Positions 20,782 to 23,818 of a stretch of 64,000 bases of DNA are shown in pieces. The stretch lies in assembly GCA_041191945.1 (NCBI GenBank), contig JBEENX010000004.1, positions 7,051 through 71,050 on the forward strand, given 5' to 3'. The notes under the pieces were generated by a model that was not told where the DNA came from, did no database searches, and worked only from the letters and a program-made list of their open reading frames with translations. The position numbers and the translations under genes were made by a program. The number at the start of each line of letters is the position of its first letter. The first letter of the stretch is position 1. This DNA comes from Bacteroidota bacterium (lineage in GTDB: Bacteria > Bacteroidota > Bacteroidia > Flavobacteriales > Flavobacteriaceae).

Positions 20782-21563
20782 AAAGTTATTGTCGTATAAG
20801 TAGCCGTTTTGTTTTGCAACATTCGGTGGTGTCCAATTCTAATTTGTTTTACCCCTTTAGATAAACTGTTGAAACAGTTGTCTAATTTAGGAATCATTCC
20901 GGAATGAATGGCTTGTTCTGCTTTTAATTTGGCATACAAATCCGGATTAATCTCTTCAATAACTGAAGTGTCATCTTCTGCATCAAATAAAACACCTGGT
21001 TTTTCAAAACAATAGGTGAGTGTAACCTCATAAACAGAAGATAGAGCAATAGCTAATTCGCTCGCAATAGTATCAGCATTAGTGTTTAATAATTGGCCTT
21101 TTCCGTCGTGTGTAATGGCACAAAAAACAGGGGTTATTCCTGTTTCAAGTAAACGGGCTAACAAAGTAGTATTGACTTGTTTTACATCGCCTACAAAACC
21201 ATAGTCGATTGTTGGATGGTTTCGTTTGTCAGATAAAATTAAATTGCCATCAGCTCCAGAAAATCCCATAGCGTTAGCGCCATTGGCTTGTAATTGTGCA
21301 ACTACTTCTTTATTGATTTGGCCAGCATAAACACCCACTACTACTTTGAGCATTGGGGCGTCGGTAATTCTACGTCCGTCAATCATTTGAGGAACCAATC
21401 CCATGCTTTGTGCTAATTTAGTAGCTGATTTCCCGCCTCCATGTACTAGAATGGTATTACCTTCTAAAGCAGCAAAATCAGCTAAGAACGAAGTTAATTC
21501 GATAGGGTTATCAATGATATTCCCTCCGATTTTTATAATGGATACGGATTGCTTATTTTCCAT
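20778..21563 (-). CDS. argB: Acylglutamate kinase
   Basis: IKIGG, VHGGG, GRRITD, NTNADTIA, GMIPKL. Confidence 0.95.
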   Translation of the reverse strand: MENKQSVSIIKIGGNIIDNPIELTSFLADFAALEGNTILVHGGGKSATKLAQSMGLVPQMIDGRRITDAPMLKVVVGVYAGQINKEVVAQLQANGANAMGFSGADGNLILSDKRNHPTIDYGFVGDVKQVNTTLLARLLETGITPVFCAITHDGKGQLLNTNADTIASELAIALSSVYEVTLTYCFEKPGVLFDAEDDTSVIEEINPDLYAKLKAEQAIHSGMIPKLDNCFNSLSKGVKQIRIGHHRMLQNKTATYTTITL

Positions 21564-22500
21564 CTTTTAGAATTTTTTGCAAAACCAATTGCGCTGCATA
21601 CGTTCGGTTATTGGCTTGTTCAATTACAACTGAATTTTCGCTATCAATCACTTCGTCTGCCACGATGACATTACGTCTTACAGGCAAACAGTGCATGAAT
21701 TTGGCATTGTTAGTCAACTTCATTTTTTCAGCAGTAACAGTCCAATTTGGATCTAAATTAGTTACTTTTCCGTATTCCTTGTAATTACTCCAGTTTTTAG
21801 TGTAAATGAAATCGGCATTTTCAAATGCTTTGTTTTGGTCGTATTCGATTTTTGAATCTTTTGTAATCTCAGGATTCAGCTCATAACCTTCTGGGTGCGT
21901 AATTACAAAATCAGCGTCTTGCAATTGCATCATTTGCACAAATGAATTAGCAACAGCCTGAGGTAAAGCCTTTGGATGTGGCGCCCAAGATAAAACTACT
22001 TTCGGACGGTGTGCTGTTTTGTGTTCTTCCATTGTGATGGCATCTGCCAAAGATTGTAAGGGGTGTCCCGTAGCACTTTCCATATTCACGATTGGCACCG
22101 TAGCATATTTCAAAAATCCAGACAATACGGTTTCAGCATTGTCTTTTTCTTTGTCAGTCAATCCTGCAAAAGCTCTAATAGCAATGATGTCGCAATACTG
22201 TGATACCACTTGAGCTGCTTCTTTGATGTGTTCAGAGGCACCTTGATTCATCACCGCTCCATCTTCAAATTCGAGTGTCCAACCTTCATTGGTAAAGTTC
22301 ATCACCATCACATTCATTCCTAAGTTCAACGCCGCTTTTTGCGTACTCAAACGTGTTCTTAAACTAGGATTAAAGAATAACATTCCTAAGGTTTTATTCT
22401 CGCCTAAGGCTTTATTTTGCAATGGATTTTTTTTGATTGCAATCGCTTCTTTTACCCATTCTTGAAGCGAATCTATTTCTTGTATGTTGATGTAATTCAT
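21553..22500 (-). CDS. argF': N-acyl-ornithine carbamoyltransferase ArgF' (probably N-succinylornithine type)
   Basis: FFNPSLRTR, WTLEF, HPLQ, WAPHP..LPQAV, HCLPVRRN: AOTCase/SOTCase subfamily signatures. Confidence 0.88.
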   Translation of the reverse strand: MNYINIQEIDSLQEWVKEAIAIKKNPLQNKALGENKTLGMLFFNPSLRTRLSTQKAALNLGMNVMVMNFTNEGWTLEFEDGAVMNQGASEHIKEAAQVVSQYCDIIAIRAFAGLTDKEKDNAETVLSGFLKYATVPIVNMESATGHPLQSLADAITMEEHKTAHRPKVVLSWAPHPKALPQAVANSFVQMMQLQDADFVITHPEGYELNPEITKDSKIEYDQNKAFENADFIYTKNWSNYKEYGKVTNLDPNWTVTAEKMKLTNNAKFMHCLPVRRNVIVADEVIDSENSVVIEQANNRTYAAQLVLQKILKDGK

Positions 22501-22514
22501 TACTTTATTTTTTT

Positions 22515-22567
22515 TGGACGCTGATTCAACGGATTCGCTTTGCGAAGACGCAGATAATAGCGGATTT
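22515..22567 (+). repeat. Left arm of imperfect inverted repeat flanking GxxExxY gene
   Basis: TGGACGCTGATTCAACGGATTCGCTTTGCGAAGACGCAGATAATAGCGGATTT. Confidence 0.85.
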
Positions 22568-22596
22568 ATTATTTTATATTCAATTGATTACTTTTT

Positions 22597-22977
22597 TTAT
22601 TTTCTATAATTTTCAAAAATTTTTCTTTTAAATTCAGGTTTTTTACCAAAGTTTAAAAGTAAACCAACTTCACAATCTGTACTTCTTAAATAATTTAAAA
22701 TTTGATTTTCAAAATCTTTCACAATACAATCAGCAGCTTTTAATTCTAATATTACTAAATCTTCCACTACTATATCAGCATAATATTCACCAACTTCAAC
22801 TCCTTTGTAATAAACACTAATTTTCTTTTGAGCTTCAACTTTATACCCTTTGTTTTTTAATTCTAAAAATAAAGAGTTTTGATATACTTTTTCTAGAAAA
22901 CCATATCCTAATTCATTATAAACTTCATAAAATGTTTTAATTATGCCGTCTGTTAATTCTTGATGTAATAATTCCAT
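22597..22977 (-). CDS. GxxExxY protein (PD-(D/E)XK nuclease-like)
   Basis: GFLEKVY motif, YADIVV..LVILELK, QILNYL, GLLLNFG; ATG at 22977. Confidence 0.92.
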   Translation of the reverse strand: MELLHQELTDGIIKTFYEVYNELGYGFLEKVYQNSLFLELKNKGYKVEAQKKISVYYKGVEVGEYYADIVVEDLVILELKAADCIVKDFENQILNYLRSTDCEVGLLLNFGKKPEFKRKIFENYRK

Positions 22978-22992
22978 AAAAATAATTTTCAA

Positions 22993-23046
22993 AAATCTGT
23001 TTCAATCTGTGTTTTCACGAAGTGAATCGGTGTTATCCGTGTTCCA
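22993..23046 (-). repeat. Right arm of imperfect inverted repeat flanking GxxExxY gene
   Basis: Reverse complement TGGAACACGGATAACACCGATTCACTTCGTGAAAACACAGATTGAAACAGATTT; 34/50 identical to left arm by manual alignment. Confidence 0.85.
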
Positions 23047-23047
23047 A

Positions 23048-23818
23048 TCAAATAATCTTCGTAAAAGGAATCTCGTTTTCTAAGGCTTTTAAAATGAAAT
23101 TATCTTCTAGTCCGTTGACAATCCAAGTTTCGATATTGGCGGCTTTGGCTATGGCTGCCGAATCAATTTTGGACTGCATTCCGCCCGTTCCGTGGGAGGA
23201 TTTGGCTTCGCCAATTTCTTTTTCTAAAGTTTGTAAATCCGTCACTAAACGAATCGTTTCAGGATGCGTATCGTGAATAGAGGCTTTAGTGTAAATTCCG
23301 TTGGTATTGGTTGCGATAATCAAAATATCAACATCCAATAAAACAGCTGTTAAAGCCGCTAATTTATCGTTATCCCCAAATTTAATCTCATCAGTTGATA
23401 CGGTATCATTCTCGTTAATAATTGGAATATAATTATTTTTTACCAAAACATCAATTGTGTTCACAATGTTTACTTTGGTTTCGGTTTTTTCAAAATCAGC
23501 ATACGAAAGCAAACATTGCGACGTATGCAAGCCTAAATCGCTAAAATTCTCATGGAATATCCGCATTAAATGGGGTTGACCAATAGAAGCTAAGGCTTGC
23601 TTTACAAAAATTTCGTTATCTGGAGCTTCCAGTTTAACAAATTGTTTTGCCGCAGCAATAGCTCCTGAACTTACAATTACAAACTCGTAATCGTCTTTCA
23701 GTGCTGCAATTTGCATCCCAATATCTTCAATCTTCCCTCTCGAAATATGATTGGTTTCTTTGGTGAGTGTGTTGCTTCCTATTTTTAATAAAATTCTTTT
23801 TTTACCTGATTTGTCCAT
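23048..23818 (-). CDS. proB: Glutamate 5-kinase (no PUA domain)
   Basis: LKIGS, VSSGAI, PIINEND, FGDNDKL, GTGGM.SKI. Confidence 0.95.
   Translation of the reverse strand: MDKSGKKRILLKIGSNTLTKETNHISRGKIEDIGMQIAALKDDYEFVIVSSGAIAAAKQFVKLEAPDNEIFVKQALASIGQPHLMRIFHENFSDLGLHTSQCLLSYADFEKTETKVNIVNTIDVLVKNNYIPIINENDTVSTDEIKFGDNDKLAALTAVLLDVDILIIATNTNGIYTKASIHDTHPETIRLVTDLQTLEKEIGEAKSSHGTGGMQSKIDSAAIAKAANIETWIVNGLEDNFILKALENEIPFTKII

Follow-up and report, generated by a model that had tools for sequence, protein, structure and literature searches.

A GxxExxY gene of the PD-(D/E)XK fold flanked by inverted, structured repeats in an arginine operon of a Flavobacteriaceae bacterium

Introduction

To our knowledge, the arrangement of a nuclease gene between copies of its own structured repeat has so far been seen in only two other nuclease families. 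In the REP/REPIN–RAYT system (REPtron), a single-copy nuclease-type gene is flanked by inverted hairpin repeats that are dispersed extragenically, often as inverted doublets, and different gene clades go with different repeats; RAYT is a HUH/Y1 transposase resembling TnpA of IS200/IS605. In the Ssn family, most GIY-YIG genes are flanked by 20–50-nt hairpin repeats that the enzyme cuts as single-stranded DNA (PMC11893778). These small single-domain nucleases and their NTS repeats (SRM), which stand on both sides of the gene and elsewhere in the genome, form co-evolving protein/repeat pairs (PMC11893778). The ORF-bearing intervening sequences (IVS) of 23S rRNA in Coxiella and Leptospira (S23p/PF05635) hold an ORF of ~120 aa in the loop of terminal inverted repeats with tandem heptamers, leave intact the transcribed unit into which they are inserted and have long been suspected to be former mobile elements (PMC4990558). 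Specifically, the Coxiella IVS of the PF05635 family has a 28-bp stem and GACAGAT heptamers and is excised by RNase III (PMC4990558). MITEs and TIR transposons possess terminal inverted arms with several direct sub-repeats and occur as gene-less derivatives at unrelated loci. Additionally, heptamer repeats between co-oriented ORFs have been described, without a link to a gene (PMC4692102).

GxxExxY proteins (PF13366/TIGR04256) constitute a large and widespread family. In a survey of the superfamily, PF13366 is listed as of unknown function and as having undergone multiple transfers (PMC3424549), and in the literature we found no account of a repeat-armed cassette design for this family.

The GxxExxY gene described here (gx), which lies in a flavobacterial arginine operon, resembles each of these systems in part. 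With REP/RAYT it shares the inverted hairpin repeats around a single-copy nuclease-type gene, their extragenic dispersal, often as inverted doublets, and the pairing of gene clades with different repeats. Unlike RAYT, it has a PD-(D/E)XK fold, its arms of ~52 nt carry four phased cores around a 5-bp hairpin and are not GTAG-type REPs, and their copy number is low (3 here and 0–89 in relatives), mostly at intercistronic gaps in operons. With Ssn/NTS it shares the small single-domain nuclease, the hairpin repeats on both sides and elsewhere in the genome and the matched evolution of protein and repeat. Cleavage of the repeat has been demonstrated for the GIY-YIG fold of Ssn, whereas it is putative for the PD-(D/E)XK fold of gx, whose arms add tandem phased cores. 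As in the ORF-bearing IVS, a small ORF is enclosed by terminal inverted repeats within a transcribed unit that is not disrupted; however, the IVS sits in helix 25 or 45 of 23S rRNA with a PF05635 ORF, whereas the gx cassette sits in an mRNA operon between proB and argF' with a PF13366 ORF, and the mismatch classes of its arms carry no RNA-level signature. The inverted arms with direct sub-repeats and the gene-less derivatives recall MITEs and TIR transposons. Distinct from these, the cassette has no transposase of any known class and shows no target-site duplication, either in 18 gene-less doublets or among the junction alleles. No transposase domain was found in the unit, as the preliminary description of this DNA had stated.

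Results

A PD-(D/E)XK-fold protein encoded between proB and argF'

The window, that is, the whole 64,000-nt stretch of DNA analysed, carries on its minus strand an arginine operon with the order argG-argC-argD-proA-proB-[gx]-argF'-argB-argE-argH. The features around gx are as follows.

23048..23818, minus strand: proB (glutamate 5-kinase), upstream neighbour; stop codon at 23048-23050
22993..23045, minus strand: upstream arm (in transcript sense); four CNGAT cores and a hairpin; nhmmer E 5e-10
22597..22977, minus strand: GxxExxY gene (gx), 126 aa; ATG at 22977; PF13366 and TIGR04256 profile matches; PD-(D/E)XK fold
22516..22567, plus strand: downstream arm; four CNGAT cores and a hairpin; nhmmer E 5e-14
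21553..22500, minus strand: argF' (carbamoyltransferase), downstream neighbour; ATG at 22500

The 126-aa reading of gx, starting at the ATG at 22977, is consistent with all homologues. The upstream arm lies 2 nt from the proB stop, and the outer end of the downstream arm lies 15 nt from the argF' ATG. Each arm is ~52 nt long, and one arm is identical to the reverse complement of the other at 35 of 52 positions, the downstream arm matching the upstream arm when it is read on the plus strand. The placement of gx between proB and argF' within two imperfect inverted arms, as given in the preliminary description, is thus confirmed, and its proposal of an insertion between cistrons that leaves the operon unbroken is supported: the cassette occupies an intercistronic gap, and the neighbouring cistrons are unbroken. 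The gx cassette is co-oriented with the arg operon and is probably expressed from it.

The sole Pfam match of gx is PF13366 (PDDEXK_3), with 134.8 bits (cut-off 22; E 2e-39), and the match to TIGR04256 reaches 132.1 bits (cut-off 35; E 1e-38). Residues G24, G26, E29, Y32, D68, E78 and K80, which include the GxxExxY motif and the catalytic D-ExK, are invariant among 39 sequences and are all present in gx. The AF2 model of gx (pLDDT 93.5) displays a compact PD-(D/E)XK core. Its best Foldseek matches are Cas4 SSO0001, 3ijm, lambda exonuclease and Hjc, with TM of 0.4–0.6, which places gx in the PD-(D/E)XK superfamily without assigning it a specific function; a search of solved structures with the gx sequence gave no match. 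Among orthologous copies, dN/dS is 0.09 for gx and 0.05 for proB and argF', and the JC distance between arms among orthologous cassettes is 0.24–0.26, against a dS of ~1.5 in the flanks and ~1.0 in gx. The low dN/dS of gx and the low arm distance relative to synonymous sites indicate that the gene and its arms are both constrained in place.

Four phased cores around a covarying hairpin

Both arms read RCNGAT-N3-RCNGAT, a hairpin, and RCNGAT-N3/4-RCNGAT, which is exactly the four-core-plus-hairpin layout described earlier. The hairpin is TTCAC-TTC-GTGAA (23014-23026) in the upstream arm and TTCGC-TTT-GCGAA (22534-22546) in the downstream arm. When 56 arms are aligned, the four GAT cores show no variation at A and T and almost none at the adjoining C and G, whereas the spacers vary. 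The cores are spaced by ~10, 21–22 and 10 nt, placing them roughly on one helix face. Pairing in the hairpin is kept in 97% of cells, and whole pairs switch together (CG 31 and UA 23; GC 35 and AU 16; CG 49 and AU 2), with no one-sided intermediates and no G:U. None of 500 shuffles reached the observed covariation score, so the hairpin covariation first seen between the two window arms holds in the wider alignment. The presence of five stem types (TTCGC, TTTGC, TTCAC, TTTAC and TTCGA) implies several independent double changes; the TTCAC/GTGAA stem of the window is one of these, and both of its substitutions are CpG transitions. Covariation of this kind argues for a single strand that folds, not for a duplex operator.

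An HMM built from the arms of orthologous cassettes finds only three solid sites in the 1.85-Mb window genome (E 5e-14, 5e-10 and 4e-10), namely the two flanking arms and one solo arm. Rfam covariance models gave no match at E <= 1, and promoter and terminator scans returned nothing relevant, with no terminator-like signal on the transcribed strand. Three other CNGAT-N3-RCNGAT matches occur in the window; two of them, on inspection, lack arm structure and appear chance-like, and the arm HMM finds no arm at the third (46161).

The cassette is one of several alleles of a variable junction

Junction DNA was searched against 150 species of the genus. Among 52 species, the proB/argF' junction holds the orthologous cassette in 13 (12 in addition to that of the window), gene-less arms of the same repeat family in six, gene-less palindromes of other units (TTAATCG, AATTAGA, CACGAAT and ATTCATA) in 28, other genes in four and a 2-nt gap in one. 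On the proB+argF' tree, these states call for no fewer than 26 changes; species with the cassette alternate with others that are separated from them by very short distances. In one species (L015), the order is proB, cassette, complete TTAATCG palindrome and argF', and its nearest kin have the cassette or the palindrome alone.

In a metagenome scan by argF', 13 contigs were at least 96% identical to the argF' of the window; the metagenome loci L155-L166 come from lake populations. Only two of these bear the cassette, one being the window's own strain; nine have spacers of 57–75 nt with other small palindromes, and in one argD immediately precedes argF'. Among the contigs without the cassette, L156 is the closest, its flanks being 95–97% identical to those of the window (dS 0.16–0.19), whereas the cassette-bearing contig L163 is much more distant, with a flank dS of ~0.9–1.06. 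The occurrence of the cassette in 13 of 52 species, together with its absence from so close a contig, means that the gene is not fixed at this junction, in agreement with the earlier view of gene and arms as a discrete unit. Among close relatives, gene and arms appear, disappear or give way to other sequence together.

Differences between junction alleles extend through the entire spacer, beginning with the final codon and stop of proB and ending ~9 nt before the argF' ATG; in relatives, this end of proB changes together with the junction allele. Empty sites or target duplications, which the preliminary description had proposed to look for by aligning proB-argF' junctions across the genus, did not emerge: neither a target-site duplication nor a clean empty site was present among the 52 species junctions, 80 metagenome loci and 18 gene-less doublets, and every allele replaces the whole spacer. 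Exchange of alleles by homologous recombination could explain the polymorphism. A search beside the junction for a recombination tract gave no clear signal beyond ~60 nt.

At the site-A loci L004-L017, and in L155 versus L163, the synonymous divergence of gx is consistently about half that of proB and argF'. Recent transfer was considered as the cause of the lower gx dS (~0.5–0.65 of the flank value; 0.055 versus 0.41 in one pair) and set aside, as no sharp boundary shows up in sliding windows and the difference may be due mostly to AT-rich composition.

Gene-less arms are dispersed in relatives

A strict arm pattern, consisting of the hairpin and both neighbouring cores, was searched in 151 genomes. 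It matches 0–89 times per genome, with 3 matches in the window genome and 18–48 in ten relatives; the reversed control pattern has no match in any of the 151 genomes. Gene-less arms form 18 face-to-face doublets of 110–146 nt at no fewer than 16 unrelated loci, with A/T-rich flanks and no fixed duplication, and two longer gene-less doublets have other palindromes nested inside. At one locus (L144; G090 C10:45025-45646), the two arms of a CNGAT doublet enclose a CATAGA-type palindrome, whose unit forms the arms of another GxxExxY clade. A solo CNGAT arm of the window genome (L105; contig C2:110034-110084) lies 7 nt after a stop codon and has the TTT hairpin loop that is genome-specific and also found in the window's downstream arm.

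An intact cognate gene is present in 10 of 19 genomes with at least six arms and in 11 of 132 with fewer, an association that is confounded by phylogeny. The genome with 89 arm matches (G081) has no cognate GxxExxY gene. In this genome (L147-L154), back-to-back CNGAT arm pairs lie inside a composite repeat of ~270 bp with terminal inverted repeats (CAATGTCATTAAGTTAAG). The abundance of arms in G081 without a cognate gene, many of them belonging to the composite repeat, weakens the case for taking arm copy number as proof that the nuclease drives their spread.

Other GxxExxY clades carry other repeat units

Each of five complete genomes of the genus contains 4–9 GxxExxY copies, nearly all with inverted arrays of 2–4 short units, which supports the suggestion that arms of the same kind stand beside other GxxExxY genes. 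Protein clades track unit families (CNGAT, CATTAAG, CATATAAG/CATAGA, CGCAAAG and CACGAAT) across non-orthologous sites; the exception is the CGCAGAT unit, which occurs with two distant protein clades. Within the CNGAT clade, the site-A copies group with a set of hairpin-armed copies from another shared site (support 97/95), to the exclusion of the bioF-site copies and of a second, hairpin-less lineage at that other shared site. All five checked genomes with hairpin-armed second-site copies lack argF'. Nesting of the second-site copies within the site-A copies, considered as proof of a directed move, was discarded, as site-A monophyly survives the AU test (p 0.38). A further site was colonised independently, as indicated by two species that have unrelated GxxExxY clades with different units there. 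Many copies are common to several species at the same site and decay in place, suggesting that they are mostly old residents.

Two further GxxExxY loci are found in the window genome. One (L001; contig C23, ~1430-1890) lies between rfbB-like and rfbA-like genes, its upstream flank having ACGAATT-type units and its downstream flank four AATTCG units; G123 also has a copy at this site, and the one found there in G065 has decayed. The other (L003; contig C3, ~1440-1700) is a truncated GxxExxY gene (63–76 aa) between sua5-like and cca-like genes, inside a perfect 18-nt inverted repeat of two GCAGATT units, and has intact orthologues at this site in G123 and G096. Directly upstream of a GxxExxY gene in another genome (L039:1006-1554; G023), seven arms stand in tandem at a period of ~83 nt, and two gene-less inverted pairs lie downstream.

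The same genomes also contain 4–9 genes each of PF05635, the four-helix-bundle family of the 23S rRNA IVS, with four in the window genome (contigs C2, C5, C8 and C13). In five genomes (L107-L126; G008, G065, G085, G096 and G123), PF05635 genes lie in inverted unit arrays with a period of ~8 nt that abut the stop and start codons of their neighbours. That two unrelated small proteins have this packaging in common makes it less likely that mobilisation is due to the nuclease itself and leaves room for a role at the RNA level.

Mismatches between arms and folding of the transcript

Across 17 cassettes, the 181 arm-to-arm mismatches comprise 38 sense-wobble, 52 antisense-wobble and 91 transversion changes. 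In the window, 8 of 17 mismatches belong to the A/G or C/T classes that are wobbles only on the non-transcribed strand. The plus-strand wobble count of the preliminary description, seven, was thus roughly right, but the meaning of these mismatches is another than the one it gave. The departures of the upstream arm from the family consensus are mostly CpG-to-CpA/TpG transitions, which account for many of the window mismatches and reflect erosion, not design.

The inner arm halves match at 0.83 within elements and 0.76 between elements, in part because changes in both arms are common to whole clades, and the outer halves keep a conserved left/right difference with no within-element matching (p 0.52). 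The RNA of a well-preserved orthologue (L009), whose arms are 85% matched, is predicted to fold into a long-range stem of ~50 bp (z −9.9), and for the window transcript no long-range stem is predicted (z −1.7). Given these mismatch classes and the window fold, the idea of a plus-strand fold-back with wobbles is left unsupported, and fold-back of the plus strand or the mRNA with wobble tolerance was rejected as a candidate on both counts. The window copy is an old, vertically inherited resident in decay, with arms 67% matched, a pre-ATG spacer shortened to 14 nt and an intact gene.

Discussion

Taken together, the gene and its two arms very probably constitute a discrete, optional cassette of a nuclease and its cognate repeat. 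Whether this is an accessory cassette of the selfish type, in which a PD-(D/E)XK nuclease gene is bracketed by inverted copies of its own family-specific repeat, is in our judgement evenly balanced, and this is the explanation we favour. We propose that the nuclease would recognise the cores and the hairpin of the arm, probably as an extruded or single-stranded hairpin, and would nick or cut at the arm, in the way that RAYT acts on REP and Ssn on NTS; this cutting may in turn drive the spread and turnover of arms and cassette. By analogy with these two systems, it is plausible, at slightly under an even chance, that the nuclease acts on its arms, and it is rather doubtful that such activity mobilises the unit. 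Against the selfish-type cassette, most copies are old, vertically inherited residents, and arms persist, and are even most numerous (89), in a genome without the cognate gene.

Three other explanations were weighed. The cassette could be an mRNA intervening sequence whose arms pair in the transcript, so that RNase III cuts the stem, the gx message is released and the insert is harmless, the nuclease being cargo unrelated to the arms. We consider this unlikely. It would account for the ~50-bp stem predicted for the well-preserved orthologous cassette (z −9.9) and for the better match of inner arm halves within than between elements (0.83 versus 0.76), and it has a precedent in the Coxiella IVS, with its RNase III-cut 28-bp stem and GACAGAT heptamers (PMC4990558), and a parallel in the PF05635 genes of the same genomes, which have the same inverted-array packaging in intercistronic gaps. 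However, no wobble signature is seen (91 of 181 mismatches are transversions, and the 38 sense wobbles do not exceed the 52 antisense ones); the outer arm halves keep their left/right difference without within-element matching (p 0.52), the hairpin passes through no G:U intermediates, and the window gene is intact and constrained though its transcript stem is gone (z −1.7). Moreover, the need for a stem leaves the four invariant phased cores, the solo arms and the tandem arm arrays unexplained. Chance similarity, or ordinary intergenic hairpins or terminators unlinked to the gene, has next to no probability: although the AT-rich region contains many short inverted repeats, in the whole genome the arm HMM matches only the flanking sites and one more, the control pattern has no match in 151 genomes, the transcribed strand has no terminator-like signal, and arms stand beside orthologous and paralogous gx genes in dozens of genomes, a family-wide conservation that already refutes it.

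The remaining explanation is a non-mobile module retained by the host, in which the arms are operator-like double-stranded arrays for autoregulation or insulation, bound by the gx protein or a host factor, and the patchy distribution results from homologous recombination at a hypervariable junction. The spacing of the cores (~10, 21–22 and 10 nt, roughly on one helix face) would suit such binding, and the long vertical residence and the purifying selection on gene and arms would suit retention. Both junction alleles predate the divergence of the closest lineages, the final codon and stop of proB go with the allele, and unrelated genes also enter the junction (a GNAT-like gene, a pair of genes inserted together and a gene for a secreted protein), all of which favours this explanation. 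Nevertheless, the same gene-plus-arms lineage resides at several unrelated sites, gene-less doublets are scattered over at least 16 unrelated loci, and the proB/argF' junction and another site have been colonised by different cassette families; the covarying hairpin speaks for a folded single strand, and no recombination tract is detectable beyond ~60 nt. We therefore hold the host-retained module to be quite improbable.

The link between the gene and a cognate structured repeat offers this large family a direct hypothesis, namely specific binding or cleavage of the arm. A selfish-type cassette would also explain a class of short tandem or palindromic intergenic repeats in operons and tie them to the puzzle of the ORF-bearing rRNA IVS. 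If the nucleases are specific for sequence and structure, the clade-specific units would represent a natural library of specificities, as has been argued for Ssn. More broadly, and only tentatively, as we think it less likely than otherwise by a good measure, GxxExxY proteins could be a third, independent fold class of repeat-associated nucleases after the HUH RAYTs and the GIY-YIG Ssn enzymes, each clade cutting its own core-plus-hairpin repeat; the cassette would then be a minimal, transposase-less mobile element of intercistronic gaps, packaged on the same principle as the four-helix-bundle cassettes from which rRNA intervening sequences arose.

Other arrangements at the proB/argF' junction

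In several loci, the proB/argF' gap holds genes without CNGAT arms: a two-gene insert encoding proteins of 214 and 237 aa (L046-L048 and L222), a gene for a secreted protein of 229 aa (L049) or a GNAT-like gene of 168 aa (L217 and L226). At others (L016 of G123, L167, L197, L200, L208, L224 and L231), which include the closest sampled species genome, argD directly precedes argF', and proA-proB, and hence the junction itself, are missing from the operon.
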